Part shown: one piece after another, positions 9,182 through 58,131 of the stretch
Layout: the number at the start of each line of letters is the position of its first letter
Position numbering within the stretch: position 1 is the stretch's first letter
From: Rhodospirillales bacterium
GTDB lineage: Bacteria; Pseudomonadota; Alphaproteobacteria; Rhodospirillales; Casp-alpha2
Direction: 5' to 3'
Length of the DNA stretch: 64,000 nt
NCBI GenBank assembly: GCA_013203955.1
Contig: JABMOY010000140.1
Span: forward strand, 1,362-65,361
Made by a program: the position numbers and the translations under genes
The notes under the pieces: generated by a model
Told to the model about the DNA's origin: nothing
The model's input: only the letters and a program-made list of their open reading frames with translations
Databases searched by the model: none

Positions 9182-9192
9182 GGTCCTTTGGT

Positions 9193-41890: not shown

Positions 41891-42670
41891 TTAAAGCCAA
41901 TCGCCGCCGGTCAGCGGGACCATCTGGCCGGTGATGAAGCCGGCCCAGTTGGACATCAGGTAAACCATCAACGCCGCCGCTTCTTCGGGGTTGCCGCCGC
42001 GCTTAAGCGGCACCATGTCGGCTCGTTCCGCCATGTCCTTGTCTTTTTTGTCATGCCAGCGTTGATGAAAGCCGCTTTCGATAAAACCGAACCGTACACC
42101 GTTGACTAGGATATTGTCGGGCGCCCCTTCGCGGGCCAGCCCCTGGACCAAGCATTCGGTACCACGCTTGGCGATGGCATAAGGAAATGACTGGGCGCTG
42201 CCCCCGTGCAGCGCCGATTCGGTGCCGGTCAGCAAGATGCGCCCGCCAGTTTTCTGGCCATGCATGTGGGCCATGGCGGCGCGGGCAAGGTAAAAGGGCT
42301 GGTTGAGGTTGACGGCCATGTCCTTCTCCCAGTCGTCGGCCGGCATGTCCTGCCAATGGCCGCTGAAATGGATGCCGCCAGATAGCACCACCAAGGCGTC
42401 GATTCCGCCGGCCTTGTCTGCGAATTCATCGACCACAGCGACACAGTCGGCCTCGGACTCAAAAGTTTTTTTCAGGCGGATAATCCTCTCGTCTTCTCCC
42501 TCGAATTCCTTGGTTGAGCCATGGGCGCCGATCATACAATCGGACCCGTCCAGTAACATGGCGACAAGCGCGCGGCCGAGTCCGCCGCTGGCCCCGGTGA
42601 TCAGAATCCGCTGGCCCTTTTCGACGCTCGGAGTCCATTCTGGGCGGCTGAATGTGATTGTAACTGTCAT
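41891..42670 (-). CDS. Short-chain dehydrogenase/reductase (classical SDR)
   Basis: 259 aa. ILITGASGGLGRAL and YAIAKRG (YxxxK). Confidence 0.85.
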   Translation of the reverse strand: MTVTITFSRPEWTPSVEKGQRILITGASGGLGRALVAMLLDGSDCMIGAHGSTKEFEGEDERIIRLKKTFESEADCVAVVDEFADKAGGIDALVVLSGGIHFSGHWQDMPADDWEKDMAVNLNQPFYLARAAMAHMHGQKTGGRILLTGTESALHGGSAQSFPYAIAKRGTECLVQGLAREGAPDNILVNGVRFGFIESGFHQRWHDKKDKDMAERADMVPLKRGGNPEEAAALMVYLMSNWAGFITGQMVPLTGGDWL

Positions 42671-43476
42671 GTGTAAGCCTTTCTCAGCACCTGGGCGCTT
42701 TTTTCGATGTCGGCCAGGGGGTCGTCTTCGTTGGCCATTCGTTGTTCGATGGAGACATAGCCGTCATAGCCGATTTCGTGAAGAGCGGTTCCGAAAAATT
42801 CGTGGTCTATTTTGCCGCTCGTGCCCAAAACGTCCAGACCCGGTTCGTTGGCGTGGAAATGCACCAGCATCTCTTTGACGGCGTCAAAGGTCTCCTTCCT
42901 CGCTTCTTCGTTCTCGACCAGCGCCTTGGCGTCCAGCTGTACGCCAAGCGCCGGGCTATCGATTTCCTTAGCGATGGATAGACTATCGAGGGCCGAGTTT
43001 ATGAAGTCGCTGTCCTTAGGGCCTAGCGGTTCGAAACAGAAGCATGTGCCGTGGGGTTCGGTGCGTTTTGTCAACTCGCCGAAAAAAGCCACCGCCTCGG
43101 CCCGGGCCTCGGGTTCGGGCACCATGCCACGCTTACGCCCGCCGCCATATATAAGAGTCCGCCCGCCTAAGTCCCGGCAAACCTTTGATAGGTGCTCGAG
43201 GAAATCCAGGCTTTCGGCGCGTGCGGCCGGTTCTTTGAAAAGCCCCAAGGAGGGTTGATCAAAAAAAAGCGAATGCAAGCCGACAACGCCCAGCCCGGCA
43301 TCTTCAATTTGCCGCCGGTAATCGGCAACTTGGTCCGCCGTTAGGCCCTTCCAGGTATCTGGCCAAACCCGACTCGGTGCCACTTCGACGGCTTCAAGTC
43401 CCAGGTCCGAAAGCCGCCCAAGTTCCTGGCCGTGATCGAAAGCCGGGAGCGCGATGTTGGAAACGGCAAACCTCAC
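42667..43476 (-). CDS. Xylose-isomerase-like TIM-barrel protein (sugar phosphate isomerase/epimerase family)
   Basis: 269 aa. MRFAVSNIALP...LEAVEVAP N-terminus and the HFHANE metal-site pattern typical of the AP_endonuc_2 fold. Confidence 0.75.
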   Translation of the reverse strand: MRFAVSNIALPAFDHGQELGRLSDLGLEAVEVAPSRVWPDTWKGLTADQVADYRRQIEDAGLGVVGLHSLFFDQPSLGLFKEPAARAESLDFLEHLSKVCRDLGGRTLIYGGGRKRGMVPEPEARAEAVAFFGELTKRTEPHGTCFCFEPLGPKDSDFINSALDSLSIAKEIDSPALGVQLDAKALVENEEARKETFDAVKEMLVHFHANEPGLDVLGTSGKIDHEFFGTALHEIGYDGYVSIEQRMANEDDPLADIEKSAQVLRKAYT

Positions 43477-43479
43477 GCT

Positions 43480-44922
43480 TCAAGTCCGTCCGTAGATGTC
43501 ATCCAGCCTGACGATATCATCTTCACTCAAATAATCGCCGGATTGCACCTCGATCAGCCTGAGCGAGCTTTTTCCTTTGTTTTCCAGCCGGTGATCGGTG
43601 CCGAGAGGAATAAAGGTTGATTCGTTGACGTTGAGTTCAAAGGTCTTATCGCCGCGGGTGACGGTGGCGGTGCCTTCAACGACCACCCAATGTTCGGCGC
43701 GTTTTTCATGGCGTTGCAGGCTGAGCTTGGCGCCCGGGTTCAACATCAACTGCTTGGCTTGAAATTTCTCGCCGCTGTCGATGATTTGGTAATATCCCCA
43801 CGGTCGATAGACGCGACTGGCGGTTTCCGATTCGGTGCGGCCCTGATCCTTCAGCCAATCGGCGATGCGGCGAACGTCCTGGGCATGGTCCTTGCCGACC
43901 ACCAACACCGCGTCGTCGGTGGCGACGACGATGATGTCGTCCAAGCCGACAACGGCGACAAAAGGCTTTTCGCTATGGATGTAAGACCCCCGAACGGAAT
44001 CGGTCATGACGTCGCCGACAATGACGTTTCCGTTCTCGTCCTTTTCGCCGGCTTGCAGCAGCGCCGTCCAGGCACCGACATCGGACCAGCCCATATCCGC
44101 CGGAACGACGGCGGCAGCCTCGGTTTTTTCCATCACCGCATAGTCGATGGAAATGGAGACCGTTGATTTATACGCCGCTTCGTCCAAGCGGAAGAAATCA
44201 AGGTCACGTTTCCCACTGGCGACGGCCTGGCGGCAGGTCTCGACGATGGCCGAATGCGTCTTTTCCAGTTCTTTCAGATAGCGGTCCGCCTGGAACATGA
44301 ACATGCCCGAGTTCCAGGTGTAGCGCCCTTCGGCCAAATAGGCCTTCGCCGTTTCGGCGTCGGGCTTTTCGACGAAACGTTCAACCCGGAAACACCCATC
44401 TGTTCCTTTTATCGGTTCCCCCTGCAGGATATATCCGTAACCGGTTGCTGCCGACATTGGCGCAATGCCGAAGGTGACGAGATGGCCTTTGCGGGCTGCT
44501 TGTTCCGCAACCAGCACCGCGTCTTCGAAGCCCTTCTGGTCGGCGATCACATGATCGGACGGCAACACCATAAGGAGCGCGTCCGGATCATTTTCCAAGG
44601 CAATCAGGGCGGCCGCGGCAATGGCGGGCGCCGTATTGCGGCCCACCGGTTCTAAAACGATCGCTTCCGGCGACAGGCCTAAATCCCTGAACTGTTCGGC
44701 GACAAGAAAACGGTGGTCTTGGTTACAGACCACCAAGGGCGCACCGAAACCGTCACCGGAAACCCGCTTTACGGTTTCTTGAAACAGCGTGACGTCTGAA
44801 TGAATTTTCAAGAACTGTTTCGGGCGTGCCGAACGCGAAAGCGGCCACAGCCGGCTGCCGACGCCGCCGGAAAGGACTACGGGGGTTATGGCCCCGATTT
44901 TTTGGTCAGATGGGGGTGTCAT
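43480..44922 (-). CDS. manC: Mannose-1-phosphate guanylyltransferase / mannose-6-phosphate isomerase (type II PMI-GMP)
   Basis: 480 aa. VVLSGGVGSRLWPLSR nucleotidyltransferase motif, C-terminal cupin with RPWGYY and GTDHRLENKG, ending in DDIVRLDDIYGR. Confidence 0.92.
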   Translation of the reverse strand: MTPPSDQKIGAITPVVLSGGVGSRLWPLSRSARPKQFLKIHSDVTLFQETVKRVSGDGFGAPLVVCNQDHRFLVAEQFRDLGLSPEAIVLEPVGRNTAPAIAAAALIALENDPDALLMVLPSDHVIADQKGFEDAVLVAEQAARKGHLVTFGIAPMSAATGYGYILQGEPIKGTDGCFRVERFVEKPDAETAKAYLAEGRYTWNSGMFMFQADRYLKELEKTHSAIVETCRQAVASGKRDLDFFRLDEAAYKSTVSISIDYAVMEKTEAAAVVPADMGWSDVGAWTALLQAGEKDENGNVIVGDVMTDSVRGSYIHSEKPFVAVVGLDDIIVVATDDAVLVVGKDHAQDVRRIADWLKDQGRTESETASRVYRPWGYYQIIDSGEKFQAKQLMLNPGAKLSLQRHEKRAEHWVVVEGTATVTRGDKTFELNVNESTFIPLGTDHRLENKGKSSLRLIEVQSGDYLSEDDIVRLDDIYGRT

Positions 44923-44936
44923 GGTTGGATCGGTTT

Positions 44937-45455
44937 CTAGCCTTCGCGCGCACGGTTTAAAATTTCAAGGGCGACCGGGCGCAAGTCGGCAAGGTCCTGG
45001 CTGTTGTCGACGACCATATCCGGGGACCGGGGCGGGGAGAACTCCATATCGACGCCGACTACGTTTTTGACTTCACCGGCCAAGGCGGGCGCATAAAGGT
45101 TTTTTTGGTCGCGGGCATAAAGGGTTTCCATAGGCACTTTGACGTAAACCTCGAAATATTTGGAAAGAGTCTTGCGGTTTCTTTCCCGCAGCTCTTCGAA
45201 AGAGGAAATGGTGCAGCAAATAACGTTGATGCCCTGCCTGTCCAGCCAAACGCACAGGTCGCAATACCTTTCGGCGATATAGTGCCGACCTAGTTCCGTG
45301 TATGCGTTGTTTCCCGTGGATGATTTTAGAATATCGCGGATTTCATCGCCGTCGACGATTACCGTATTCTGCTCTTCCACAGTCCATAGTTCGTAAAGGT
45401 GGCGGCCGATGGTTGTTTTACCGGACGCCGATAAGCCCGTAAGCCAAATGATCAC
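44937..45455 (-). CDS. APS-kinase-like P-loop kinase (divergent CysC homologue)
   Basis: 172 aa with a GTG start at 45455 preceded by GGGGGA. P-loop IWLTGLSASGKTT and DGDEIR motif. The LGFS/ENIRR block of canonical APS kinases is not conserved. Confidence 0.65.
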   Translation of the reverse strand: MIIWLTGLSASGKTTIGRHLYELWTVEEQNTVIVDGDEIRDILKSSTGNNAYTELGRHYIAERYCDLCVWLDRQGINVICCTISSFEELRERNRKTLSKYFEVYVKVPMETLYARDQKNLYAPALAGEVKNVVGVDMEFSPPRSPDMVVDNSQDLADLRPVALEILNRAREG

Positions 45456-45466
45456 GTTATTTTCCC

Positions 45467-45481
45467 CCGGTGTGTTTCAAT
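45467..45481. repeat. Direct repeat copy 1 (CCGGTGTGTTTCAAT)
   Basis: Shares CCGG plus the exact 10-mer GTGTTTCAAT with 45549-45562. The copies bracket the 102-nt gap between the Fe-ADH and APS-kinase-like genes. Confidence 0.3.
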
Positions 45482-45548
45482 GGAAATCTGTTTCGCCAAA
45501 TTTTTTTTATTCGGCTTCAACGAACTGATGGGGGTGGTTAAAACAAAA

Positions 45549-45562
45549 CCGGGTGTTTCAAT
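45549..45562. repeat. Direct repeat copy 2 (CCGGGTGTTTCAAT)
   Basis: See copy 1. This copy overlaps the stop codon of the Fe-ADH gene (45558-45560). Confidence 0.3.
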
Positions 45563-46718
45563 TGTTGACGGCGGCATCCAGCTCGCTGGCTGGACAAAAA
45601 TAGTTCAGTGCAAGCCGGGCAATTCGTCGTGCAGCCTCTTCATCAACGCTGCGAATGTTGTTAGCGGCGCGGGAACGGGTGATGAGATTACCTTCAAGGG
45701 TATCTGCGACATCGGGCGTTACATACGCGGCGAGAAGCGGGCCGACGCCCAGTTCCCCGAACCATTTCTCCAGATGTTCCGGGATTTCATCGACGGAACA
45801 CTCGAGCCCCTCGGCGATAGGAAGAAGCCGGCTGGGGTCATCTTTCATGTTGTAGCGGGCGATTTCGGGCAAGGTGAAACTGCAGGCAAGGCCATGCGGA
45901 ACGTCGAAATGAGCGGTAAAGGGATAACTGATGGAATGGGCGGCGGCAGTCTGGGTCGTTCCCATGGTCAGGCCTGACAGAAGCGAGGCTATTTGTACCC
46001 GGCTTCTGAGTACGATGTCGTTTGGTTCTCTCATTGCCGCCAACAGATGGCGGCGGAGCGTACGGATGGCCTTTTCCGCCAGCGCATCCGTGACTTCCGT
46101 ATGGCGCCTGTTCCACACCGATTCCATGGCATGGCTAAGCGCGTCCAACCCCGTAGCAAGGGTCAGGTTTCCGGGCATGGAAACGCACAAAGCTGGGTCA
46201 AGAACGGCGTTGCTGGGATAGAGGCTCGTATGGGAAACCGAATGCTTGATCCTATCTTCCCCCCAGATGGTTCCCCAGCAGGTGACTTCCGACCCGGTGC
46301 CGGATGTCGTTGGCACCGCTATGATGGGTATTGGGGCAAAAGAGTCCGGTAGCGGTTCGCCATCCCTGAGATGGGTCATGAAGGGCCTAAGGTTGTTGCT
46401 CAGGGCCTTAAGGGCGACGGCGCCTTTGGCGGCGTCGATGACGCTGCCGCCGCCGAGGGCAACGACGGTATCGACATCCGGCAACTCATCTGCCAATCCG
46501 ACCACGGTCGGGACATCGGGGTTGCTACAGACGTTCGCCAGCAGCGCCCGGGGTGGGCCGCAACGGTTCTGGATTTTGCCGACTGCACCTCGCATCAGCC
46601 AGCCGGCGCTGGTAACCAGGACCCAGGACTTGCCATCCAGGAGGCCCGCCAGTGCCTCATCGAAGTCCTGGCCTTGGGCAACCACGGTCGGACAATGGAA
46701 GGGACGCTTTAGAACCAT
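45558..46718 (-). CDS. Iron-containing alcohol dehydrogenase (phosphonoacetaldehyde-reductase-like by context)
   Basis: 386 aa. VVALGGGSVIDAAKG and His-rich metal-site segments (LDALSHAMESVWN, AAAHSISYP). The start overlaps the upstream HEPD/MPnS-family gene by 10 nt. Confidence 0.8.
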   Translation of the reverse strand: MVLKRPFHCPTVVAQGQDFDEALAGLLDGKSWVLVTSAGWLMRGAVGKIQNRCGPPRALLANVCSNPDVPTVVGLADELPDVDTVVALGGGSVIDAAKGAVALKALSNNLRPFMTHLRDGEPLPDSFAPIPIIAVPTTSGTGSEVTCWGTIWGEDRIKHSVSHTSLYPSNAVLDPALCVSMPGNLTLATGLDALSHAMESVWNRRHTEVTDALAEKAIRTLRRHLLAAMREPNDIVLRSRVQIASLLSGLTMGTTQTAAAHSISYPFTAHFDVPHGLACSFTLPEIARYNMKDDPSRLLPIAEGLECSVDEIPEHLEKWFGELGVGPLLAAYVTPDVADTLEGNLITRSRAANNIRSVDEEAARRIARLALNYFCPASELDAAVNN

Positions 46719-48100
46719 TGTTTGGTCTCTCCGGCGACGCGGCTGCGGCCCTCAACGGCAAAGGTTGAGAATTCATCGATGACGGCATCGCTTAGCGTTC
46801 CCGGTATGCGGACAATGACAAGCCTACCCTCGTCCTGATCCGGGGCAACGGAGAAAGAATGGCTAACCATCGGTCGAATATAGGCAGAATCGCCGGGGTT
46901 GATAATGTCCGCATTTTCGTTTTCGCCCTCGTTCCAAAGAACGGAGACGGGCACGCCGCCGTAATTGTAGACATATTGATGAAGGCTGTGGCGGAATTGC
47001 CCTTCGGTCGTATCCACGCCGGACAGTACGCTGAGATCGAATCCCTTTAGGCCCGGCTGGCGCCGGGTGCGGGCTAATTCACGCATCCGGTAAGCAGGAT
47101 TATTGACTTTCGGATAAAGACGCTCGGGGGTATCACCGGCATAGCGGACGGTCACAGGACCTTCATCTTCCAGCGGCGTCACCATCAAGTCTTCGGCCCG
47201 GATGTGAAGGGCCTTGGCCAGGGCGACCGTTTCGTCGGCTGTCGGCACCTCGTTTCCGCCTGTCAACATGTCGATGCGGGTCCGATCCATCCCGCCCGCT
47301 AGCAACCGGTCGGCCAGGTCTTGTCGGTTGAGGGACTCGGCGGCTAGATACCTGTCGAGCCGCGCTCGGAACGCGCCGATGCTGTTCGTCGGATTTCCGG
47401 CCAATTCGTCGGCGCTGTTAGGGCCGATCAATCCGAATTGGCCCAGCGCCCGGCGAACATCACCGCCGTAGGTGACGGCGAGGATCAGGCCGGGCCGGTC
47501 GGGGTTACGACCGGCGAACGAGTGCGGCACAAAAGGAGAAATGTAATTGGAATCACCGGTATTCATTTCCGTGCAGTAGCCCTGCCCGGCGATCCGCCAA
47601 TAAAAGTTCACTTCGCCGATGAAGAACGTGCATTGATGCATCAGGTGGCCGTGGTTATAGGCGACATCCGGGTTGTCCGGGTCGGCATCGTCGACGAGGC
47701 GAATCGGCTGTATCCATTCCGGCTTGAAAGGCGCGGTACGGCTCATGGCGGTATCACGGTATTCGTAATAGGGCGTAAGATCGCCGTCGCGGTCCTTGCG
47801 ATCAAAGAAGCGTAGGGTCGCCCGGCTTTCTTCGTCCCGCATGATTTTCACGCCGGATTCGGTATCGTCAGGTTCCACCCAAAGGTCGGCCAGGGAAACC
47901 GGATATTTATCCGCCATGGCACGGATGATCGCTTCCGCCGTTTCCACGGGGGAGCGACCATCGATGGCGGCATGAATGGTATCAATATCGAATTCTATTT
48001 CTTCCGCTAGGGCCTCGGGGGTGCGCTTTAGGTCGTTGGCTTCGGAAAAGATTCGGGAACCCAATGCCGCTAAATGTCTTTTATCGCGAGTCTCATTCAT
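46709..48100 (-). CDS. mpnS: HEPD/MPnS-family non-haem iron oxygenase (tandem HTH-like plus cupin repeats); candidate methylphosphonate synthase
   Basis: 463 aa. Two repeats of helical HTH-like segment plus cupin. The first cupin carries AYNHGH(152)LMHQ(156)CTFFIGEVNF(166)...NYI(187)SPFVPH(193), the His-x3-Gln...His pattern with Phe/Ile neighbours that I recall for MPnS. The second cupin lacks an equivalent ligand set. Confidence 0.6.
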   Translation of the reverse strand: MNETRDKRHLAALGSRIFSEANDLKRTPEALAEEIEFDIDTIHAAIDGRSPVETAEAIIRAMADKYPVSLADLWVEPDDTESGVKIMRDEESRATLRFFDRKDRDGDLTPYYEYRDTAMSRTAPFKPEWIQPIRLVDDADPDNPDVAYNHGHLMHQCTFFIGEVNFYWRIAGQGYCTEMNTGDSNYISPFVPHSFAGRNPDRPGLILAVTYGGDVRRALGQFGLIGPNSADELAGNPTNSIGAFRARLDRYLAAESLNRQDLADRLLAGGMDRTRIDMLTGGNEVPTADETVALAKALHIRAEDLMVTPLEDEGPVTVRYAGDTPERLYPKVNNPAYRMRELARTRRQPGLKGFDLSVLSGVDTTEGQFRHSLHQYVYNYGGVPVSVLWNEGENENADIINPGDSAYIRPMVSHSFSVAPDQDEGRLVIVRIPGTLSDAVIDEFSTFAVEGRSRVAGETKQWF

Positions 48101-48110
48101 CGGCCGCGCC

Positions 48111-49223
48111 TTATTCCTTGAATACCTTTAGGGCTTTTTCATAATCCTCGACGGTGTCGATTTCCTTCCAGCCGCGCTCAATCATGACGCAGTGGACAGG
48201 AACGCCTAGATCAACCATTTCCTGGATCATGTCGGTCAGATATGCTTTCTGGAAAACCGCTGCACGCTGGAAAGGTTTGTCCCAGAAAACTTCCTTGGCG
48301 CGGTGGAAGTGTTTCTTGAAAATTCCGGCGCCCCTTGGCGACAATTTCATCATGCCGATGAATTCGCCATGAACGTCGTGCTTATCGGCAAAAATTTTTC
48401 CAATTTCAACGACGTTATTGTTGGCGTCGAAGATGACCGTTTCGGCTTCTTCCAAGGGGTGGTCATTGCGGTCGACGTAGTACCCGCGCCAATCAAGATC
48501 GACGACGACGGAGATATCGGCTTCAGACCGCAGGAGTCGTTGGACGACCTGACTCTCAAATAGGATGTCGGAATAGGAAACGATGATATGCCCGTCCAAT
48601 TCTTTTTCCGCATAGAACAGTGAATTGAGGATGTTGTTGTCATGGTAATCAGGGTTCTCGTAATACCGAATGCCCGGGTAGTTGATCTTTTCCTTCGCAA
48701 AACCACGGATCAGGGCGACATTATTTAGCCCGCATTCCTGAAACGCCGCCAATTGCCGCTGCAACAGGGTCTGGCCATCGAAATCAAGCATGCATTTAGG
48801 CTGTGACTCGGTGTGCGCTTTCAACCGGCTTCCCATGCCGGCGGCGATGATCAGCACCTTGGTATTGGAGGACGTTATGGTTTCTCTCATTTCGTCTATC
48901 TGCTCGCCGGAAAGATTGAATTTGTGTATAGCGCGGATTAGGGGAATTGTTTCGGGCCTGTCGCGCATAATAGGGTCGACATCGGGGGCAACGGCGTTTT
49001 TCGACTGACCGGCAAGATCGAAAAGTTTTTCGGTGTCGGCATCCAGAATTTCAGCAAGGGATTCGATGGCTTCAACCCTCGGAGCAACACGTTTGTTTTT
49101 TTCGATATCATTCAGATAAGAAGGCGAAACCTTCAGCGCACGCGCCAGTTCCCGCTGTCCAATTTCCCTTTGCATCCTTAAGGACCGGACATATTCGCCA
49201 AAAGTCTCTTTTCCTTCATGCAT
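48111..49223 (-). CDS. XRE-type HTH domain fused to a LicC/PntC-like nucleotidyltransferase
   Basis: 370 aa. N-terminal HTH (GQRELARALKVSPSYLNDIEKNKR). A nucleotidyltransferase domain follows from about residue 120 (VLIIAAGMGSRLK...). Visibly lower GC than neighbouring genes. Confidence 0.8.
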   Translation of the reverse strand: MHEGKETFGEYVRSLRMQREIGQRELARALKVSPSYLNDIEKNKRVAPRVEAIESLAEILDADTEKLFDLAGQSKNAVAPDVDPIMRDRPETIPLIRAIHKFNLSGEQIDEMRETITSSNTKVLIIAAGMGSRLKAHTESQPKCMLDFDGQTLLQRQLAAFQECGLNNVALIRGFAKEKINYPGIRYYENPDYHDNNILNSLFYAEKELDGHIIVSYSDILFESQVVQRLLRSEADISVVVDLDWRGYYVDRNDHPLEEAETVIFDANNNVVEIGKIFADKHDVHGEFIGMMKLSPRGAGIFKKHFHRAKEVFWDKPFQRAAVFQKAYLTDMIQEMVDLGVPVHCVMIERGWKEIDTVEDYEKALKVFKE

Positions 49224-49305
49224 GTAAAACCTTGATTCTCCAGTGTTCTACTGTTCGCAAACAAGTTAACACTTAAATAAACCCTGTCGCAATACTAAAA
49301 AAACA

Positions 49306-51150
49306 TTACTTTCCAATGGCTTGATCTCTCTTGCAGCCTGCAGCGACGGCATCTCTGCCAATATCGCCGAAACAATCGATGATGCGTTGGTCGGTGATTT
49401 CAGGAATCTCGGCCATGCGTTCCGCAATCAGGGCATTGAAGCGGGAAATCAGTTGGTGGTCGGGGCGGTACAGGTTGTGGGTTTCCGACGGGTCGTCCCG
49501 GATATTGAACAGTTCTGGGCCATCGGGGCTGAACTTGTCGGCCGGGTCCTTGTATTCGCGCCAGCAATAAAGGTGGTCTTTCGTGCGCACGGCGAAATAA
49601 AGGGGTCGGTGGTCGAACAGGCAATTGCCGCCGTAGAAGGTTTCCAGCAACACATGATCCCTATCGCCGCCTCCCGGTTCGGTGACCGCTAGGCCCTCCC
49701 AGTCCGGGGCCGGGTCGACCCCTGCCAGGGCGGCTACCGTCGGCGGCATGTCGGCGATGGTGAACAGCCCGTCGAGGCGCGTCTTGCCGATTTTCGGGTG
49801 GGAAAAAACCATCGGCACCCGCGTGTTGTGGGTGTAGTGCAGGAAATAATGGCCGAAATCGCCGTGATCGCCCAACTCCTCTCCGTGGTCGCCGGCAACG
49901 ATAATCAATGTGTCGTCCCTGAGGCCTAGCCGTTCGACGGCGTCGACGATGCGCCCGATCTCATCATCTGTTGAGCGCACGGCGCAATCGTAAAGGGCGG
50001 AAAAGGCATCGCCGTCTTGTTTTCTTTTCGGCTTGCCGTCGAAGGACAGGGAAGGATCGATATCCGGAGAATAACCGAGTGCCTCCAGCAGCCGGGGGGT
50101 GTGCCGATACCACTTTCGGCCCGGCCCTGAAACATAAGGGTGGTGAGTGTCCATGAAGTGGGTCCAGATGAAAAAGGGCTTCGTTTTATCCCGCTGCTCC
50201 AGCAGGCCGATGACCTTGTCGGCCAGGGAGTGGGCATCGGGGTAGATCTTGAAGCGGTTTTGCCGCGCCCGCGCCCATTTGGCATTTACCCAGCCAAGCA
50301 ACAGGTTGCCGGCGCGGAAAAAAAGCTCTGCGATCAGCCTGGAAGGTTTCCGGCAATAACGCCATTCCCTGACCAGCCAGCGGTTCATCCATTCCTTGCC
50401 GACCGGCGTCGGGATCAGGTGGCGGCGGATATAGGCAATCTTACCGGCCTGGTATTCCTGCCGGTGGCGACCGATGGCGGCCTTGATCTTGGCGAAGTCG
50501 TAGCGCGAATTGACCAGCGCCGAATCAGGAAAGTCGCGGTCGATTTCATCGCCCCGCTCAAGTATCAGGTCGCAATAAACCGACGTGTTGTCAAAAAACC
50601 GCAACAGCACGGGATCGACTTTGCCTAACAGTTCGCCGTCGTTGATGTTGCCTTTCTCAAACTCCAGAAGGGTGTTGCGGATCATCGCCAGGGCGACGCC
50701 CGGCAAGGAGTTCAGCCCGAAGGTTTGGATTTCCTCGTCAATGCCTTCGTCATATCCGAAAAACCTGTTGACCCAATGAAGCGTGGTCAAGCACGTGGTT
50801 TTGTAGCCAGCGTCATGGAACCGCTTGAACACGGTTTCGGGCCGGCCTTCGGCGCCGTAATCGTATCCTCCGTAGGACAAGGGGCGGCTTGACGTGAACA
50901 TCTGCGCGCTGGCGGCCTGGGTGAAGGTGGCCATGGAAAAAGCGTTTTCACAGACGACGGCCGTTTTGGCCAGCCGTTCCAGGGTGGGGGTCGTCGGACG
51001 GTCGTAGCCATGCAGGCTGGTACGGTCGGCGCGTAGCGCGTCGACGGTCAGCATCAGGATGTTGGGTTGTTGATGTCGATGATCCATCAAATTATATCCA
51101 GGAGAAGGCTTTTGGCGTCGTTCTGGGAATCGCCGAAACGGAATTCCCAA
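49306..51150 (-). CDS. Alkaline-phosphatase-superfamily (sulfatase-fold) protein lacking the formylglycine motif
   Basis: 614 aa. Sulfatase-like N-terminus PNILMLTVDALRAD...TPTLERLA...NAFSMATFTQAASAQMFTSSRP and a later VAGDHGEELGDHG block. The position of C-x-P-x-R is occupied by T-Q-A-A-S. An alternative start is M22 at 51087. Confidence 0.75.
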   Translation of the reverse strand: MGIPFRRFPERRQKPSPGYNLMDHRHQQPNILMLTVDALRADRTSLHGYDRPTTPTLERLAKTAVVCENAFSMATFTQAASAQMFTSSRPLSYGGYDYGAEGRPETVFKRFHDAGYKTTCLTTLHWVNRFFGYDEGIDEEIQTFGLNSLPGVALAMIRNTLLEFEKGNINDGELLGKVDPVLLRFFDNTSVYCDLILERGDEIDRDFPDSALVNSRYDFAKIKAAIGRHRQEYQAGKIAYIRRHLIPTPVGKEWMNRWLVREWRYCRKPSRLIAELFFRAGNLLLGWVNAKWARARQNRFKIYPDAHSLADKVIGLLEQRDKTKPFFIWTHFMDTHHPYVSGPGRKWYRHTPRLLEALGYSPDIDPSLSFDGKPKRKQDGDAFSALYDCAVRSTDDEIGRIVDAVERLGLRDDTLIIVAGDHGEELGDHGDFGHYFLHYTHNTRVPMVFSHPKIGKTRLDGLFTIADMPPTVAALAGVDPAPDWEGLAVTEPGGGDRDHVLLETFYGGNCLFDHRPLYFAVRTKDHLYCWREYKDPADKFSPDGPELFNIRDDPSETHNLYRPDHQLISRFNALIAERMAEIPEITDQRIIDCFGDIGRDAVAAGCKRDQAIGK

Positions 51151-51188
51151 AGTTTGGGGCGTCCTTGGTCATGAGACGCACATGGAAA

Positions 51189-52985
51189 TCAAAGCTTGGC
51201 GAGCTCGACAAGGTTGTTGAAGTTTGAATTGCGTGCGGCCAGTTCCTCGAATGTCCCGATATCGTCAATGCGACCGTCTTTCAAAAAAACCACGCGATCG
51301 CATGCTCGAACCGTACTTAGCCGGTGGGCAATGATGATCATGGTTTTTTCGCCGCGGAATTTTTCGATGGCCTGATTGACCTCCTGCTCGGTTTCGCTAT
51401 CGAGCGAAGACGTCGCTTCGTCAAAAATAAGAACCCCAGGATCACGGTAGAGAGCTCGGGCGATGCCCACGCGTTGGCGTTGCCCGCCGGAGAGGCGGGT
51501 TCCCCGGTCGCCTAATTGCGTTTCCAGGCCATCGGGCAGACCCCTAACGAAGCTCTCCAACTGCGCCAGGCGGACGGCGTTTTGTATCATGTCCTCGCTG
51601 ATCTCATGGTCAGCCAGCCCAAAGGCAATGTTACGGCGCAGGGTGTCATCGGTAATGTATATGGATTGTGGCACGTATCCGATTTGGCGGCGCCAGGCGC
51701 TAGGTGCGTCCCGTATATTCGTGCCATCGACGGTCACAGCGCCCGAGTCCGGAACCAAAAGGCTAAGCACTATATCGACCAGAGTGGTTTTGCCCGAACC
51801 GGACCGCCCCACCAAGCCCATGGACTCGCCCTTGTTTAAGACGAGATCAATGTCCTTCAAAACGGCACCGTTGCCTTGGTCATAGCTAAAGGACACTCCA
51901 TTTATAGATAGCGCCGTTTTAAATGCCAGGGTCTGGCCGTCGTCTTCCGACTCTTCGTCCGGGTTGGCACGGAATGCATGAAGGTCTTGATAGATGAGTT
52001 CGACGGCGTGCGACCCACTCTTGATGCCGTTAAGGGCGATGATGATCCTGTTCATCGACGGAATCATGCGAAAGGCGGCAATCGCGAAAAGGGTGATTGA
52101 CGAAAGAATTTCCGCCGATCGGCCGCCGCTGGAAAGAATGGATATGACAGCCAATAGGACGGCGGCGACAATCACGGACTCGACCCACAGTCGCGGCGCC
52201 CCGCTCATTGCCCTGAGCTTGGTTCGGATTCCGGCAAGTTCCAGACAGGGGCTTTCAAAGCTTTCGAGAATGTAACGCTGCCGGCCCAGAATTTTCACCT
52301 CTTTGATGTTGTGAAATCCCTGCTGCAGGGATTTTAGGACTTCCCCAGTCGCTTTTTGCTCGCGCATACCCCAGGCCGAGAACCGACTTTTTGAAAAGCT
52401 GAAAAATATGGCGACCGCCGCGCCTAGCACGAGAAACGCGCCAAGGGTCAACATCGGTTCTGCCATGAGCAGGACAACGATCAGCGCGACGATCATGACG
52501 GCTTCCGAAGCAAGGTTGATGAAACCCGTAATCACGGTGCCGAAAATAGCCGTCACAGAGCCGGTAATGTTGCGAATTAAATCTGCAGAATTCCGTCTCA
52601 AATGCAGGGAATAGGCGCCTTTAAGGTAACTGTCCAACAGGCGTACGGCCAACGAAGCTTCGTTGGCGGCGGTAAAGCTTGCCTGAAAGTAATAAAATCC
52701 GATAAGGATCAGGTTCTTGATAAGGAACCCCGCAAGGAGACCGAATGACATGAGGATCAATGCCTCGGTTTCGTTCTCGACAAAGGCCGGGCCGACTAAC
52801 TTTCCGACCACCGCAATATTTTGTATCTGGGTGGGGTCAATCAGTGCTTGGACGAAAACGAATATTAACCCGATTCCAATCGCTTCGAGCATGCCGGCAA
52901 CCAAAGCCAAAATGCTGACCGCCCCGGCATGCCACAGGGTTTTTCGCTCGATCATGGCGAGGCATTTTCGGAGTTCAGTCAACAT
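51189..52985 (-). CDS. ABC exporter, fused permease-ATPase (MsbA/PglK/Wzk-like)
   Basis: 598 aa. Six-helix TMD followed by an NBD with Walker A GRSGSGKTT, signature LSGGQRQR and Walker B LIFDEATSSLD. Confidence 0.9.
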   Translation of the reverse strand: MLTELRKCLAMIERKTLWHAGAVSILALVAGMLEAIGIGLIFVFVQALIDPTQIQNIAVVGKLVGPAFVENETEALILMSFGLLAGFLIKNLILIGFYYFQASFTAANEASLAVRLLDSYLKGAYSLHLRRNSADLIRNITGSVTAIFGTVITGFINLASEAVMIVALIVVLLMAEPMLTLGAFLVLGAAVAIFFSFSKSRFSAWGMREQKATGEVLKSLQQGFHNIKEVKILGRQRYILESFESPCLELAGIRTKLRAMSGAPRLWVESVIVAAVLLAVISILSSGGRSAEILSSITLFAIAAFRMIPSMNRIIIALNGIKSGSHAVELIYQDLHAFRANPDEESEDDGQTLAFKTALSINGVSFSYDQGNGAVLKDIDLVLNKGESMGLVGRSGSGKTTLVDIVLSLLVPDSGAVTVDGTNIRDAPSAWRRQIGYVPQSIYITDDTLRRNIAFGLADHEISEDMIQNAVRLAQLESFVRGLPDGLETQLGDRGTRLSGGQRQRVGIARALYRDPGVLIFDEATSSLDSETEQEVNQAIEKFRGEKTMIIIAHRLSTVRACDRVVFLKDGRIDDIGTFEELAARNSNFNNLVELAKL

Positions 52986-53069: not shown

Positions 53070-53627
53070 TCATGGCCGATCCTTGCCGTCGATTTCAAGG
53101 CGCGAACGGATAAAAGCATATAACGTGCCGACGGCGTCCTCTGGGCTTTGATGGGCGGTGTCGAGTTCAAGGTCGGGCGATTGCGGCGGCTCGTATACAC
53201 TACCTGAAGAAAAGCCGATCATGCCGTCCATTTCACCTCCAGCCGCCTTGGCGTACAGGCCCTTGACGTCGCGACCGACGACCGTGTCCAGATCCGCATT
53301 GCAGAAGATTTCAAAAAAACCGGGGCCCAGCTTTTCGCGCGCGTCCCGCCGGCTCTCGCCATAAGGTGAAATAATCGGCACCAAGATGACGTCGTAAAGC
53401 CCTCGTTGTTCGGCGCAGATTTCGGCGATTAACATGTTGTTTTCCTTAACCTCGGGCTCGCTGAAACCGAGGTGACGGTGAAAGCGGCGGCGTACGTCGT
53501 CGCCGTCCAGGGTCAAGACGTCGAGCCCGTCCTTGGTCAGCTGTTCCCTGACGCCGTCGGCGATGGTGCTTTTTCCCGCCCCTGACAGCCCTGTGAACCA
53601 GATAACGCCGCCCGGCTTGCTCGTCAT
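53070..53627 (-). CDS. cysC: Adenylyl-sulfate (APS) kinase
   Basis: 185 aa from ATG 53627, which forms an ATGA overlap with the upstream stop. VIWFTGLSGAGKSTIA, LDGDDVRR, LGFS, IISPYGESR. The track start at 53762 adds an Arg-rich extension overlapping the upstream gene. Confidence 0.88.
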   Translation of the reverse strand: MTSKPGGVIWFTGLSGAGKSTIADGVREQLTKDGLDVLTLDGDDVRRRFHRHLGFSEPEVKENNMLIAEICAEQRGLYDVILVPIISPYGESRRDAREKLGPGFFEIFCNADLDTVVGRDVKGLYAKAAGGEMDGMIGFSSGSVYEPPQSPDLELDTAHQSPEDAVGTLYAFIRSRLEIDGKDRP

Positions 53628-55588
53628 GACGTCGAGGCCTTCGGAGGGAATACAGGCGTAATGCCGATATCGCCCAGGCGGTCGAACAGGTCCCGGGCGG
53701 CGTTCGTTCCGTCTTCGCTGGCGGCGGGAATGAAATAGCCGCAGCCCATGTTTTTCAGGCAAAGGGCGGCGAAGACCATTTCCCGGGGACCGCTGAGCCG
53801 GCCATAGGCAGCGAACCCGCCGAGAACCACCCGGCCTTCGGGATAGATCCCCGATTGCAAGGCCGCTTGATAGCTTTCCATCACCGGGTCGGGTTGGGAT
53901 TCGCCCGGCGCATCGGGGTCGATGGACGGGCTGATGTAGAGCCCGTCGGCCTTGGTTGAAGCCAAGGCATCAATGTGGAAATTCTGCAATTTCTGGGTGG
54001 ACGAGGCTTCACCGTAAAACCCGGCGACCCGGCTCCAGCCCTTCTGGTTGAAGATAAAACGGGTCTGGGCCGGGAAAAGCTGGTAATGGCGCCACGGCGA
54101 TGGAATTCGATTGACCAGCGTTACCGGCCCGGCGACGGCCATGTCCCCGGCGGCCAGCAACCGCTGCACGCCCGGATGGTCCCGAGCGTCGGTCTCGAAC
54201 AAGGCTTTGGCCGTCTTGTCGAAATCAAGCGGATAAATTTCCGTGACATCCATGAAGGCGTGGGCCTCGCGGCTATCCGACGTCAGCGCGATCCTGTCCC
54301 CGGGGGCGAAGGCTTTGGTCTTTTCCACCATCGTCTGCAAAACGACCGGCAGGGTCCAGGCGAGGCCATCGTTAAGTTGGTATTTGGTCAAAACCGATTC
54401 CAAGGTCGCCTGGTCCATGAAGCCGGTCAAAGGGGAATAGGTGCCCAGCGCAATCTGCTGGCAATCGAGAAGATCCCTGGCCGAAACCTGGAGCCGGGGC
54501 AGGCCATCCAACGCTTCGCCATCGGCGGCCTCGCGGTGGACTAAGGCGCCACCGTGCGGTTCGGGCAGCAGCGACACGGGGTCAAGGTGGTAGCGGTCGG
54601 TTTCGTCGTCGTCCCGATTTTCGAAGACGTTGATCATCTTCGCCACCATGTTGGCGCAGCGCACCGGGTATTGGCCGATGGCCGTTTCCGCCGCCAAGAC
54701 GACCCCGTCGGCACCGTCCAAGAAGGTATTGTAGATGTCGTTGACTTCGGCCCGGGTGGGCACGGGCTCTGTGACCATCGATTCAAGCAGGTTGGTTGCC
54801 ACATAGACCTTTCGGTTTTTGGCGCCGGCCGTTTTGATAATCTTTTTCTGGTAGGCGGGGATGAGTTCGATGGGAACTTCGCGCGATAAATCGCCCCGGT
54901 CGATCAATATGGCATCGGACAGTTCGGCGATTTCTTCAAGATTGTCGACGCCGTTGCGGCATTCGATCTTGGAAATGATGGAGGAACCTTTTCCGGTCAG
55001 CGTTCGAAGCTCCCTTACGTCCTTTCCGGAATTGGCGAACGATAGGGCGAAATGAGTGACTCCTAAGTCGACGCCGATGGCGACTGCCGCTCGATCCTTT
55101 TCCGTCAGCGCTGGCATAGTGATGGGTCGGTCCACGGTAACGGCCTTATTGCGACCAAATTTTCCGCCGTTGAGAACCCTCATGGAGAGCGTATCGGCGG
55201 TGCAATCGATGACCTGAACCAGGACGGCGTTGAAATCGATGCTGATTATGTCGCCGACTTGGAATTCCGAAATGATGCCGTGGGGATAAAAATTGAAATC
55301 TTTGCCGTTTCCCGGAACCGTTTCCCGGTGCGCCCGGACGATGGCATTTTCATCCATTTGAAAGGTTGGCTCCGTTAGGTCCCCGGTGCGGATCTGCGCG
55401 CCTTCCGTATCCAAGGACAGCGGCACCCGGGTTAACGAGGTAACGAAACGGATGGCGTCGGCGACGTCGTCCAGCTTAGTGTGGGACAGGTTGATCCTGA
55501 ACAACGTCACGCCCAGCTCTTCCAGCCGGGCAATGACGTGCTCGTTCATGGAAGCCGGGCCGAGGGTGCAGAGAATTTCTTTGGTCAT
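53624..55588 (-). CDS. Fusion protein: pyruvate-kinase-like barrel (about aa 1-335) plus ATP-sulfurylase-like domain with degenerate catalytic motifs (about aa 340-654)
   Basis: PK motifs: ILCTLGPAS, RINLSH, LDTEGAQIRTG, ISKIE, IDRGDLSREVP, ATNLLESM, PTRAEVND, LAAETA. Sat-like part: GTYSPLTGFM, GPREMVFAALCLKNMGCGYFI. GFYGEASSTQ replaces QTRNPxHxxH, and PAASEDG replaces GRDHAG. Confidence 0.8.
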   Translation of the reverse strand: MTKEILCTLGPASMNEHVIARLEELGVTLFRINLSHTKLDDVADAIRFVTSLTRVPLSLDTEGAQIRTGDLTEPTFQMDENAIVRAHRETVPGNGKDFNFYPHGIISEFQVGDIISIDFNAVLVQVIDCTADTLSMRVLNGGKFGRNKAVTVDRPITMPALTEKDRAAVAIGVDLGVTHFALSFANSGKDVRELRTLTGKGSSIISKIECRNGVDNLEEIAELSDAILIDRGDLSREVPIELIPAYQKKIIKTAGAKNRKVYVATNLLESMVTEPVPTRAEVNDIYNTFLDGADGVVLAAETAIGQYPVRCANMVAKMINVFENRDDDETDRYHLDPVSLLPEPHGGALVHREAADGEALDGLPRLQVSARDLLDCQQIALGTYSPLTGFMDQATLESVLTKYQLNDGLAWTLPVVLQTMVEKTKAFAPGDRIALTSDSREAHAFMDVTEIYPLDFDKTAKALFETDARDHPGVQRLLAAGDMAVAGPVTLVNRIPSPWRHYQLFPAQTRFIFNQKGWSRVAGFYGEASSTQKLQNFHIDALASTKADGLYISPSIDPDAPGESQPDPVMESYQAALQSGIYPEGRVVLGGFAAYGRLSGPREMVFAALCLKNMGCGYFIPAASEDGTNAARDLFDRLGDIGITPVFPPKASTS

Positions 55589-58118: not shown

Positions 58119-58131
58119 TCTTTGATGGGTA

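Follow-up and report, generated by a model that had tools for sequence, protein, structure and literature searches.

We analysed a 64-kb stretch of DNA from a Rhodospirillales metagenome contig (the window), in which six open reading frames lie in a row on the minus strand at positions 44937–52985 (Table 1). An ORF check found all six at these coordinates, and the identities that an earlier sequence-only reading had assigned to them all proved correct, as judged by ORF positions and by family matches in Pfam, NCBIfam and the PDB. The block is no chance adjacency, because it recurs in independent genomes whose methylphosphonate synthase (MPnS) is 75% and 59% identical to that of the window. The comparison set consisted of 80 genome loci, and the window's clade comprises about 24 loci. 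Loci with genes for the entry enzymes PEP mutase (PepM) and phosphonopyruvate decarboxylase (Ppd) beside mpnS are called linked below, and the others unlinked.

Table 1. Genes of the six-gene block and of its flanks in the window
Feature	Position	Strand	Family match
ABC exporter, PglK/MsbA/HepA-like, fused TMD-NBD	51189–52985	-	ABC_tran + ABC_membrane
Sulfatase-fold protein, alkaline-phosphatase superfamily	49306–51150	-	PF00884, 134 bits
XRE-type HTH fused to LicC-like nucleotidyltransferase (NTase)	48111–49223	-	HTH_31 + NTP_transf_3
MPnS-type bicupin, 463 aa	46709–48100	-	PDB 6b9s, E=6.6e-81
Fe-alcohol dehydrogenase (Fe-ADH), PhpC/Pdh type	45558–46718	-	TIGR03405, 280 bits
APS-kinase-like P-loop kinase	44937–45455	-	APS_kinase, 109 bits
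ManC (GDP-mannose pyrophosphorylase/PMI)	43480–44922	-	TIGR01479, 667 bits
Second, more canonical APS kinase (context, not core)	53070–53762	-	TIGR00455, 156.5 bits
Pyruvate-kinase (PK) barrel + PUA_2 + degenerate ATP-sulfurylase-like domain (context, not core)	53624–55588	-	

The cupin, which shares 100% identity with NQU61386.1 of a Rhodospirillales MAG, aligned over residues 9–463 with methylphosphonate synthase 6b9s and also matched HEPD (6b9r, E=2.1e-67). Its Fe ligands are H152, Q156 and H193 (a 2-His-1-Gln triad), and it carries F166 and I187, the Phe/Ile pair described as separating MPnS from HEPD (PMC11978286). The actinomycete HEPD loci compared all have Tyr/Gly at these positions. 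The full-length match and the MPnS-specific markers place the protein in the HEPD/MPnS family, as the sequence-only reading had proposed; judged by its residues, the window cupin is of the MPnS type. The best NCBIfam match of the Fe-ADH was the phosphonate-type model TIGR03405, at a score under the cut-off of 423.7 bits, with the next family at 153 bits and sulfoacetaldehyde reductase SarD at 118 bits. Its start overlaps the stop of the cupin gene by 10 nt (46709–46718), an overlap that was noted before, is real, and is kept in loci L003, L005 and L087. Orthologues of the Fe-ADH sit in the PepM-Ppd-MPnS-ADH operons of L014 and L087, which supports the earlier pairing of the two enzymes as late-pathway partners. 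The Fe-ADH and MPnS are predicted to catalyse the last two steps of methylphosphonate synthesis.

The remaining genes of the block suggest activation, attachment and export. The 370-aa NTase ORF has HTH_31 at residues 8–65 and NTP_transf_3 at residues 123–246; the latter domain found its best PDB matches in LicC (1jyk, E=1.2e-13) and PntC (6pd1, E=1e-4), and the protein has the G-x-G-x-R-L signature. Among the loci compared, the HTH fusion is confined to the window, L003 and L005, while nearly every locus has an NTase gene immediately upstream of mpnS, and in Chloroflexi the two are fused. We propose that the NTase is a CTP:methylphosphonate cytidylyltransferase. The sulfatase-fold protein, which JGI annotates with a start near 51087, is soluble, with neither a signal peptide nor a transmembrane domain, and its N-terminus gave weak matches to EptA/CptA. 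When it was aligned to the S1 sulfatase 5g2v, T-Q-A-A-S stood opposite S-G-P-S-R, and the Thr at the nucleophile position is invariant across all MPnS-linked sulfatase-fold homologues. The earlier call of a sulfatase fold (PF00884) held and can be refined: a true sulfatase is ruled out, as the formylglycine motif is absent and Thr stands in its place. This replacement makes the protein probably a phosphonyl transferase, with methylphosphonyl as the putative transferred group.

The APS-kinase-like kinase scored 173.7 bits against NF004041 (cut-off, 127), and its gene accompanies mpnS in 12 loci of the window's clade, including the linked L014, as well as in the linked L087. By analogy with a Campylobacter pathway considered below, we propose that the enzyme is a 3′-kinase of a nucleotide-methylphosphonate conjugate. 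The second APS kinase of the window exceeds its TIGR00455 cut-off of 138.7 bits; the JGI call gives it 185 aa and a start that overlaps the stop of the upstream gene by 4 nt. The best NCBIfam models for the ABC protein were PglK (342 bits) and MsbA (311 bits), both under cut-off, and a homologous gene adjoins the module in 7 loci of the unlinked type and in none of the linked ones. It is presumed to be a flippase or exporter for the lipid-linked glycan, modified or not. The NTase, sulfatase-fold and APS-kinase-like genes recur beside mpnS in linked and unlinked loci alike.

The earlier observation that PEP mutase and phosphonopyruvate decarboxylase are missing from the 64 kb was borne out by four kinds of search. 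Pfam detected no PF13714 or TPP-decarboxylase architecture in window ORFs of at least 150 aa, a six-frame search of the window did not find the EDKx5NS motif, and phmmer and tblastn with Pfam-verified PepM and Ppd seeds gave no match in the window. Neither enzyme was encoded in the 4.7 kb past its right end, which brought the DNA inspected to about 69 kb. For at least 12 related genomes at species level, ±10 kb was inspected and likewise contained no pepM or ppd. Of the 120 top-ranking PepM::NTase homologues, the few for which an NCBI accession is listed all fall outside the accession series of the window's MAG; with over 8000 PepM candidates in existence, this is weak evidence against entry genes elsewhere in that genome. 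The unlinked arrangement is the rule in the window's clade; lack of linked entry enzymes is typical of the clade and not of the window alone.

Sister genomes share the core and have PepM::NTase and Ppd genes immediately upstream of mpnS. On the 4.07-Mb contig of L087 the order is NTase, PepM::NTase, Ppd, MPnS, Fe-ADH, sulfatase-fold and APS-kinase-like; L014 resembles it, with PepM and Ppd seeds verified by Pfam. In the MPnS phylogeny, every outgroup is linked to PepM/Ppd, and within the window's clade, linked loci occur at the base (L020 and L023) and also nested among unlinked ones (L011 and L014). This distribution indicates that the enzymes are orthologous and that linkage alone changed. 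It bears on whether the ADH and MPnS of the unlinked clade have turned to a non-phosphonate such as the sulfonate analogue isethionate, as might be suggested by the sulfur-nucleotide-type (APS-kinase and ATP-sulfurylase-like) genes clustered nearby and by the fact that sulfoacetaldehyde reductases are likewise Fe-ADHs. We regard such a change as highly improbable: all 19 positions examined in the active site and substrate region are near-invariant between unlinked and PepM-linked MPnS, linked loci nest within the clade, and the ADH scores far better on the phosphonate model than on SarD. In addition, the ATP-sulfurylase-like domain is without its catalytic motifs, and PepM-linked operons, too, come with APS-kinase-like and sulfatase-fold genes.

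All five enzymes are under purifying selection, with dN/dS values of 0.08–0.28 among unlinked loci at 50–86% amino-acid identity. The missing local entry enzymes could also mark a decaying, non-functional remnant from which pepM and ppd were lost, but these values, the intact state of all ORFs and the conservation of translational coupling and catalytic residues leave that account hardly credible.

Several other genes lie near the module. The PK-barrel fusion, which keeps ordinary pyruvate-kinase catalytic motifs, is also found beside mpnS in L019; a split transketolase-like ThDP pair occurs in the window, L003 and L008; and a B12-radical-SAM gene is present in L005 and in the DNA flanking the window. 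Any of these might be imagined to form the C–P bond, or to give phosphonoacetaldehyde (PnAA), by a de novo route independent of PepM. We give this very little credence, as no candidate is common to the unlinked loci, where no family able to replace PepM/Ppd recurs, the PK barrel looks catalytically ordinary, and chemical precedent is lacking. A salvage-fed pathway is unlikely but deserves more weight. Here, the genome would have no pepM or ppd; PnAA would derive from imported 2-aminoethylphosphonate (2-AEP) via a PhnW-type transaminase, or 2-hydroxyethylphosphonate (2-HEP) would itself be imported, with methylphosphonate still ending in a surface decoration. It would fit the failure to find pepM/ppd in any of the DNA examined for most clade members, the environmental abundance of 2-AEP and HEP, and the ability of PhpC-type ADHs to interconvert HEP and PnAA (PMC13576164). 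However, a phnW-like aminotransferase, a phosphonate-binding protein and an importer were all missing from the window and from the genes that recur in unlinked loci, the sole ABC system has exporter architecture, and the retained ADH argues for PnAA rather than HEP as the input.

The surface-glycan locus around the module extends from about 11.6 kb to past 64 kb of the window. Domain matches over this span upheld the earlier description of a module embedded among an initiating transferase (Glycos_transf_4, 15761–16792), glycosyltransferases and an exporter. The locus includes a Polysacc_synt_2 gene, one GT1, three GT2, PMT_2, ManC, KdsB-like and HldE-like genes, a carbamoyltransferase and many methyltransferases. 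The manC gene lies 14 nt downstream of the APS-kinase-like gene, which ties the module to the glycan genes. The module is probably co-transcribed with the locus, and methylphosphonate may be tied to one particular glycan. Alternatively, the glycan genes could be mere neighbours, with methylphosphonate left free or nucleotide-bound or placed on a lipid or protein. Lipids, proteins and polysaccharides have all been described as carriers of phosphonates (PMC11978286), and the module lies beside differing glycan gene sets in other genomes. We nevertheless consider a different fate doubtful, given the tight, single-strand packing of the module between glycan genes, the adjoining PglK-like exporter, and the glycan-synthesis neighbours (such as NeuB, DegT, GTs and rml) in every locus inspected.

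Taken as a whole, the evidence makes it fairly probable that the block is a functional module for methylphosphonate decoration, supplied by pepM and ppd genes located elsewhere in the genome. The analysis itself shows the homology, the marker residues, the synteny, the selective constraint and the lack of pepM/ppd in the DNA inspected, whereas each chemical step and the location of the missing genes are inferred. PnAA would presumably come from PepM and Ppd encoded, for instance, in a 2-aminoethylphosphonate-type cluster. The Fe-ADH would reduce it to 2-HEP, which the translationally coupled MPnS would convert, with Fe(II) and O2, into methylphosphonate (MPn) and a C1 unit. The LicC-like NTase would then combine MPn with CTP to CMP-MPn, whose 3′-OH the APS-kinase-like enzyme may phosphorylate, yielding a donor resembling PAPS or CDP-phosphoramidate-3′-phosphate. 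The cytoplasmic Thr-type sulfatase-fold enzyme would move the methylphosphonyl group, via a covalent Thr intermediate, onto a hydroxyl group of a sugar in the lipid-linked glycan, and the PglK-like transporter would export the product.

Parts of this scheme have counterparts in known systems. In the capsule locus of Campylobacter jejuni, a nucleotidyltransferase and an APS-kinase homologue build a 3′-phosphorylated cytidine-diphospho donor, with Cj1415–Cj1418 making CDP-phosphoramidate 3′-phosphate (PMC11800397). The NTase and APS-kinase-like pair of the window resembles this system by analogy, and orthology to Cj1415/Cj1416 is not implied. The Campylobacter pathway differs in that a glutamine-derived phosphoramidate, not a phosphonate, is transferred. 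The transferases Cj1421/22 are not known to have the sulfatase fold. LicC and PntC, which activate phosphocholine and 2-aminoethylphosphonate, resemble the window NTase over only about 115 residues; the window enzyme has an N-terminal HTH and methylphosphonate as its presumed substrate. The sulfatase-fold protein shares the alkaline-phosphatase superfamily fold and the Thr nucleophile position with EptA/MCR-1 and other Thr-nucleophile enzymes. Unlike EptA/MCR-1, it is soluble, and its overall sequence is nearer to S1 sulfatases and phosphonate monoester hydrolases.

The complete operons of L087, L014 and L011 have an orthologous MPnS (52–54% identity), the ADH overlap, the Thr-type sulfatase-fold protein and the APS-kinase-like kinase; they encode PepM::NTase and Ppd upstream of MPnS, where the window has the HTH-NTase and ABC exporter instead. 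The ppm-ppd-pdh-mpnS clusters of the Nitrosopumilus maritimus/SAR11 type likewise share the MPnS triad and Phe/Ile markers, the PhpC/Pdh-type Fe-ADH, an adjacent NTase, sulfatase-fold neighbours and a proposed methylphosphonate ester on a surface polymer. The window MPnS is about 35–37% identical to the archaeal enzymes, and its block differs from these clusters in having no adjacent pepM/ppd, an HTH on the NTase, and the PglK-like exporter and APS-kinase-like genes. MPnS in Rhodospirillales with neighbouring glycosyltransferases, adenylyltransferases and arylsulfatases has already been published (PMC9381506); what is new here is the architecture variant, an MPnS module without linked entry enzymes.

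The six minus-strand genes that the sequence-only reading had grouped into a phosphonate module are all present as open reading frames (ORFs), and Pfam, NCBIfam and PDB searches backed every family assignment (see the table). The proposed 10-nt overlap between the start of the Fe-alcohol dehydrogenase (Fe-ADH) gene and the stop of the cupin gene was found at 46709–46718. Elsewhere in the module the genes are spaced by 10–102 nt, and the ManC gene begins 14 nt downstream; from the overlap and these short gaps, the module looks co-transcribed with glycan genes. The surface-glycan locus described around it was also recovered. It runs from about 11.6 kb onward through the window, with an exporter, a WecA/MraY-type initiating transferase, a Polysacc_synt_2 dehydratase and glycosyltransferases (one GT1, three GT2 and a PMT_2 family GT-C), together with KdsB-like and HldE-like proteins, a carbamoyltransferase, AsnB, several methyltransferases and two SPASM radical-SAM enzymes. 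The Rhodospirillales MAG protein NQU61386.1 (HQ512_09665) matches the cupin protein at 100% identity, and JGI metagenome contigs as long as 66–68 kb carry the cupin gene too.

Table. Genes of the putative methylphosphonate module and the gene marking the edge of the glycan locus.
Feature	Coordinates	Strand	Assignment or evidence
ABC exporter, fused TMD-NBD	51189–52985	-	best families PglK, MsbA, HepA (NCBIfam)
Sulfatase-fold protein	49306–51150	-	Pfam/NCBIfam/PDB searches
HTH-nucleotidyltransferase (HTH-NTase), single ORF	48111–49223	-	XRE-type HTH (residues 8–65) and NTP_transf_3 (residues 123–246)
MPnS-type cupin	46709–48100	-	PDB 6b9s and 6b9r matches
Fe-ADH	45558–46718	-	top NCBIfam family TIGR03405
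APS-kinase-like protein	44937–45455	-	APS-kinase family
purH	9997–11568		edge marker of glycan locus

Within the glycan locus, a run of four genes at 28395–31822 (-) encodes a phosphoglycerate-dehydrogenase-like 2-hydroxyacid dehydrogenase, a phosphoglycolate-phosphatase-family HAD protein, a NanM-like sugar O-methyltransferase and a KdsB-like CMP-ulosonate synthetase, which suggest an unusual ulosonic-acid or glycerate-type substituent. The HAD hydrolase (29345–30148) was considered as a phosphonatase and rejected, being a phosphoglycolate phosphatase instead (TIGR01449, over the cut-off). After the APS-kinase-like gene, with ManC between, come an AP_endonuc_2 xylose-isomerase-like TIM-barrel protein (42667–43476, -) and an SDR (41891–42670, -). 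The same two follow the APS-kinase-like gene in L003, a homologous locus from another contig, and the TIM-barrel protein is present in locus L025 too; they are possibly a sugar keto-epimerase/reductase pair belonging with the module. Just outside the glycan locus, 2400–7253 (+) encodes a 1617-aa NAD-specific glutamate dehydrogenase (Bac_GDH) and an Atg22-like MFS transporter, an ordinary housekeeping context.

The assignment of the cupin to the HEPD/MPnS family was confirmed by homology search, which did not place it in an unrelated HTH-cupin family. Its PDB matches were methylphosphonate synthase (MPnS; 6b9s, E = 6.6e-81, residues 9–463) and HEPD (6b9r, E = 2.1e-67), followed by HppE epoxidases at ~1e-3. 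The homology to the tandem HTH-like and cupin fold of HEPD/MPnS is full-length, as expected of an MPnS (EC 1.13.11.73). The 2-His-1-Gln iron triad is kept (H152/Q156/H193, corresponding to H148/Q152/H190 in N. maritimus numbering) and is invariant in 80 of 80 loci. Alignment to 6b9s identified F166 and I187 as the MPnS-type Phe and Ile flanking the Gln ligand. Born et al. in 2017 reportedly found the triad and the Phe/Ile pair to be needed for methylphosphonate synthesis; the same requirement is stated in PMC11978286, where Phe/Ile as against Tyr/Gly tells MPnS from HEPD. We checked these marker positions in about 80 aligned MPnS/HEPD sequences (genome-scan loci, the window and the first fetched loci). 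The split was clean: Tyr/Gly in all loci of Streptomyces, Amycolatopsis and Kitasatospora, HEPD producers that include S. hygroscopicus, and Phe/Ile in all Nitrosopumilus, SAR86, Prochlorococcus and alphaproteobacterial loci. The remaining conserved active-site and substrate-region positions checked in this alignment were essentially invariant. On the basis of the triad, the Phe/Ile markers and these invariant positions, the predicted product of the cupin enzyme is methylphosphonate, not hydroxymethylphosphonate.

Fe-ADH scored 280 bits against TIGR03405 (PhpC/Pdh phosphonoacetaldehyde reductase, the phosphonate-cluster ADH), under the 423.7 cut-off; TIGR03405 is still its top family, the next one reaching 153 bits, 127 bits behind. 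It is orthologous and syntenic with the ADHs of operons that also encode PEP mutase (PepM), phosphonopyruvate decarboxylase (Ppd) and MPnS (443 bits to the ADH of locus L014), and the identical 10-nt ADH/MPnS overlap occurs in locus L087.

The two entry enzymes themselves, PepM and Ppd, had not been recognised anywhere in the 64 kb, and Pfam, motif, phmmer and tblastn searches agreed. Among ORFs of at least 150 aa in the window, none had a PEP_mutase domain (PF13714) or a Ppd-type TPP_enzyme_N/C architecture, and the EDKx5NS motif of PEP mutase was absent from all frames. PepM and Ppd seed sequences from related loci, examples of each verified with Pfam, were used in phmmer searches of stop-to-stop ORFs of at least 70 aa and in tblastn searches (E ≤ 10); they gave no match in the window save a cytidylyltransferase-domain cross-match to the HldE-like gene. 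The sole ThDP enzyme in the window is a split transketolase-like pair. Other contigs with the same genes reach 4.7 kb past the right end, and this flank encodes an SDR, a small ferredoxin-like protein, a B12-binding radical-SAM enzyme and a methyltransferase-like fragment, with no PepM and no Ppd. The PepM/Ppd-free stretch thus totals ~69 kb, and both the PepM and the Ppd of a canonical pepM-anchored phosphonate cluster are missing from the 64 kb plus 4.7 kb. A B12-binding radical-SAM gene lies near an unlinked mpnS module (one with no pepM or ppd nearby) in two loci, L091 (773–2524, ~2–4 kb beyond the right end of the window) and L005 (1–727); Fom3 and PhpK, which methylate phosphonates at C and P, belong to this enzyme class.

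At E ≤ 1e-10 the MPnS/HEPD family numbered 894 proteins, and JGI labels many of these methylphosphonate synthase. MPnS homologues of 75% and 59% identity sit in the same block of ABC exporter, HTH-NTase, MPnS, Fe-ADH, APS-kinase-like and sulfatase-fold genes. Homologue-bearing loci lie on a 275-kb contig (L003/L004) and on 1.3-Mb contigs (L005/L006), none with PepM or Ppd within ±10 kb of mpnS; a 5.7-Mb contig also encodes the protein. A species-level scan of GTDB, with a single genome for each species, yielded 80 loci, which were scored for all module genes with flanks of ±10 kb. Distant MPnS/HEPD homologues (below ~45% identity) almost always had PepM and Ppd within 10 kb; the clade of the window (at least 49% identity, mostly Rhodospirillales and relatives) was mostly without them over the same distance. 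Unlinked clade loci with full flanks include L008, L010, L013, L016, L017, L019, L022, L025 and L030, and the PepM/Ppd-linked exceptions inside the clade are L011, L014, L020 and L023. Of the unlinked ones, L008 belongs to CAYPAV01, L010 to CAYQNO01, L022 to a 2.1-Mb contig of JAEPQO01 and L025 to JBNPEI01. L087, on a 4.07-Mb contig, carries a complete operon of NTase, PepM::NTase (PEP mutase fused to NTP_transf_3), Ppd, MPnS, Fe-ADH, sulfatase-fold and APS-kinase-like genes. In a neighbour-joining tree, some linked loci branched basally to the unlinked ones and others in their midst; the outgroups were all linked. From this topology we infer that the window enzymes are orthologues of the complete-operon enzymes and that linkage alone has changed, more than once or with reversal.

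PEP mutase occurs in two fusion types in the family, PepM with a C-terminal NTP_transf_3 domain and an N-terminal CTP_transf_like domain followed by PepM (L011 6349–8004; L014 5885–7999; L087 7169–8827; L020 13639–15090, -). The former is very common, with at least 8000 candidates at E ≤ 1e-20 when the L011 PepM::NTase was used as query against a 5.8-billion-protein set. In L087 a transposase of the IS66 family (17148–18686) is encoded downstream, a few kb away from the complete operon, which hints that phosphonate modules move between glycan loci.

All-vs-all ORF clustering of 24 clade loci gave just six recurrent families: MPnS (24/24), NTase (22/24), Fe-ADH (19), APS-kinase-like (12), sulfatase-fold (10) and the ABC exporter, whose seven occurrences were all in unlinked loci. 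Beyond this known module, no family able to replace PepM/Ppd was common to the unlinked loci; representative other families were annotated as NeuB, DegT and similar glycan genes. A PepM-independent route to the phosphonate is hardly credible, since its candidate genes are not common to the unlinked loci. The dN/dS values of the window against L003 or L005 were 0.08–0.28 for all five enzymes, so that the module is under purifying selection, which makes it exceedingly improbable that we are looking at a decaying remnant.

Phosphonoacetaldehyde (PnAA) is a common branch point with 2-AEP synthesis, and for this reason the module would most plausibly draw its PnAA from pepM and ppd elsewhere in the genome. 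Salvage, in which environmental 2-AEP or 2-hydroxyethylphosphonate (2-HEP) feeds the module, is unlikely, no transaminase or importer having been seen in the window or as a recurrent gene of the unlinked loci. It is also doubtful that the Rhodospirillales-centred clade, whose Fe-ADH/MPnS/NTase module is intact and selected, is without pepM and ppd genome-wide and takes the methylphosphonate for its surface from a source independent of a PEP mutase of its own; recycled environmental 2-AEP or HEP could then be that source, an unknown C-P-forming route being far less likely. If this were true, a whole class of organisms making methylphosphonate would escape surveys anchored on pepM, and closed clade genomes proving pepM-free would make the finding much more important. 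Methylphosphonate is a proposed precursor of aerobic marine methane, and counts of its producers usually rest on pepM, or on mpnS next to pepM. We find a sizeable alphaproteobacterial clade whose surface-glycan loci contain mpnS together with the genes of its partners (ADH, NTase, kinase and transferase), pepM and ppd not being nearby. Surveys of pepM-adjacent mpnS would consequently under-count it, as would the major survey in PMC8931226, which scored mpnS only if adjacent to pepM.

Upstream of the module, 53624–55588 (-) encodes a 654-aa fusion of a pyruvate-kinase (PK) barrel, PUA_2 and an ATP-sulfurylase-like domain. Its PK catalytic motifs are intact, and alignment to 8a8d showed the ATP-sulfurylase motifs QxRNxxHxxH and GRDHAG replaced by FYGEASSTQKLQNFH and PAASED. 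According to the JGI gene call, its final 4 nt are shared with the beginning of the downstream gene for a canonical APS kinase (53070–53762, -), and L019 has a homologue of the fusion (715 bits) next to mpnS. The fusion was considered as a PAPS or PEP-mutase surrogate and rejected: its PK motifs are ordinary, its ATP-sulfurylase motifs are lost and it occurs in two loci only. A changed, sulfonate-type substrate for the module is very improbable, given this dead ATP-sulfurylase domain, the invariant MPnS active site and the linked loci nested in the clade. An HldE-like protein of reversed domain order (adenylyl/cytidylyltransferase N-terminal, PfkB kinase C-terminal), both domains under their equivalog cut-offs, is found in the window (59964–61550, -), L003 (716–2278) and L008. 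It is conserved near mpnS together with the split transketolase/E1-like pair (56368–58220 in the window) in three unlinked loci, and tblastn showed a weak similarity (E = 2.4e-6) of its transferase domain to the cytidylyltransferase part of the PepM fusion in L045.

The best PDB matches of the NTase were LicC (CTP:phosphocholine cytidylyltransferase, E = 1.2e-13) and the PntC nucleotidyltransferase/aminotransferase (6pd1). An NTase gene lies directly upstream of mpnS in almost all loci, archaea included, and in Chloroflexota loci L049, L051, L053, L056 and L059 (roughly 9000–11330 in each) the LicC-like NTase and MPnS are in an apparent continuous frame, in stop-to-stop ORFs of 685–1351 aa where the NTase domain precedes the MPnS domain. 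This near-universal adjacency and the fusions are strong sequence evidence that NTase and MPnS are functionally coupled. Only in the window, L003 and L005, which form a subclade, is the NTase fused to an HTH domain.

The sulfatase fold of the sequence-only reading stands, with a different probable activity. The protein aligns with S1 sulfatases and phosphonate monoester hydrolases; it lacks the (C/S)-x-P-x-R formylglycine motif of S1 sulfatases, having T-Q-A-A-S opposite S-G-P-S-R of 5g2v, and this Thr is invariant in all MPnS-associated sulfatase-fold homologues, linked or unlinked. The N-terminal part weakly matches EptA/CptA and a signal peptide is missing, features more in keeping with a cytoplasmic phospho(no)transferase that uses a Thr nucleophile than with a sulfatase. 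The APS-kinase-like protein scored 112 bits against the CysC equivalog TIGR00455, under the 138.7 cut-off, and passes the subfamily model NF004041 only (173.7 bits, cut-off 127). In alignment it diverges from the canonical motifs, as does the paralogue at 53070–53762, which passes TIGR00455.

Homology and context allow a tentative order of chemical steps to be proposed. Fe-ADH would reduce PnAA to 2-HEP, which MPnS would convert to methylphosphonate, and the LicC-like NTase would activate this to CMP-methylphosphonate, to which the APS-kinase-like enzyme may add a 3'-phosphate. Next, the sulfatase-fold enzyme of Thr type may transfer the methylphosphonyl group onto a sugar of a lipid-linked glycan at the cytoplasmic face, for export by the PglK-like ABC transporter. 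That methylphosphonate is made and stays unattached to the glycan of this locus seems to us improbable. The partner set (the LicC-like NTase, sometimes fused to MPnS, the APS-kinase-like protein and the Thr-type sulfatase-fold protein) would provide a concrete chemical route for esterification of methylphosphonate to polysaccharide.

MPnS clusters with nucleotidyltransferase and sulfatase neighbours are established and have been read as making methylphosphonate esters of exopolysaccharide; to our knowledge, this attachment has been assumed since 2012 and never defined. PMC9381506 already counts Rhodospirillales among the MPnS carriers and reports genes for glycosyltransferases, adenylyltransferases and arylsulfatases as neighbours. 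Apparently new are the following: mpnS is uncoupled from pepM/ppd across the clade; the block includes an HTH-NTase fusion and an ABC exporter; the "sulfatase" is recognised as a Thr-type enzyme; and the donor may follow a PAPS-like logic. For the last, the parallel is Campylobacter MeOPN, for which PMC11800397 describes Cj1415-1418 as making CDP-phosphoramidate 3'-phosphate as donor. That pathway likewise combines an NTase and an APS-kinase homologue in a capsule locus; here the likeness is one of domain family and context, and by analogy the NTase/APS-kinase-like pair may follow the same donor logic.
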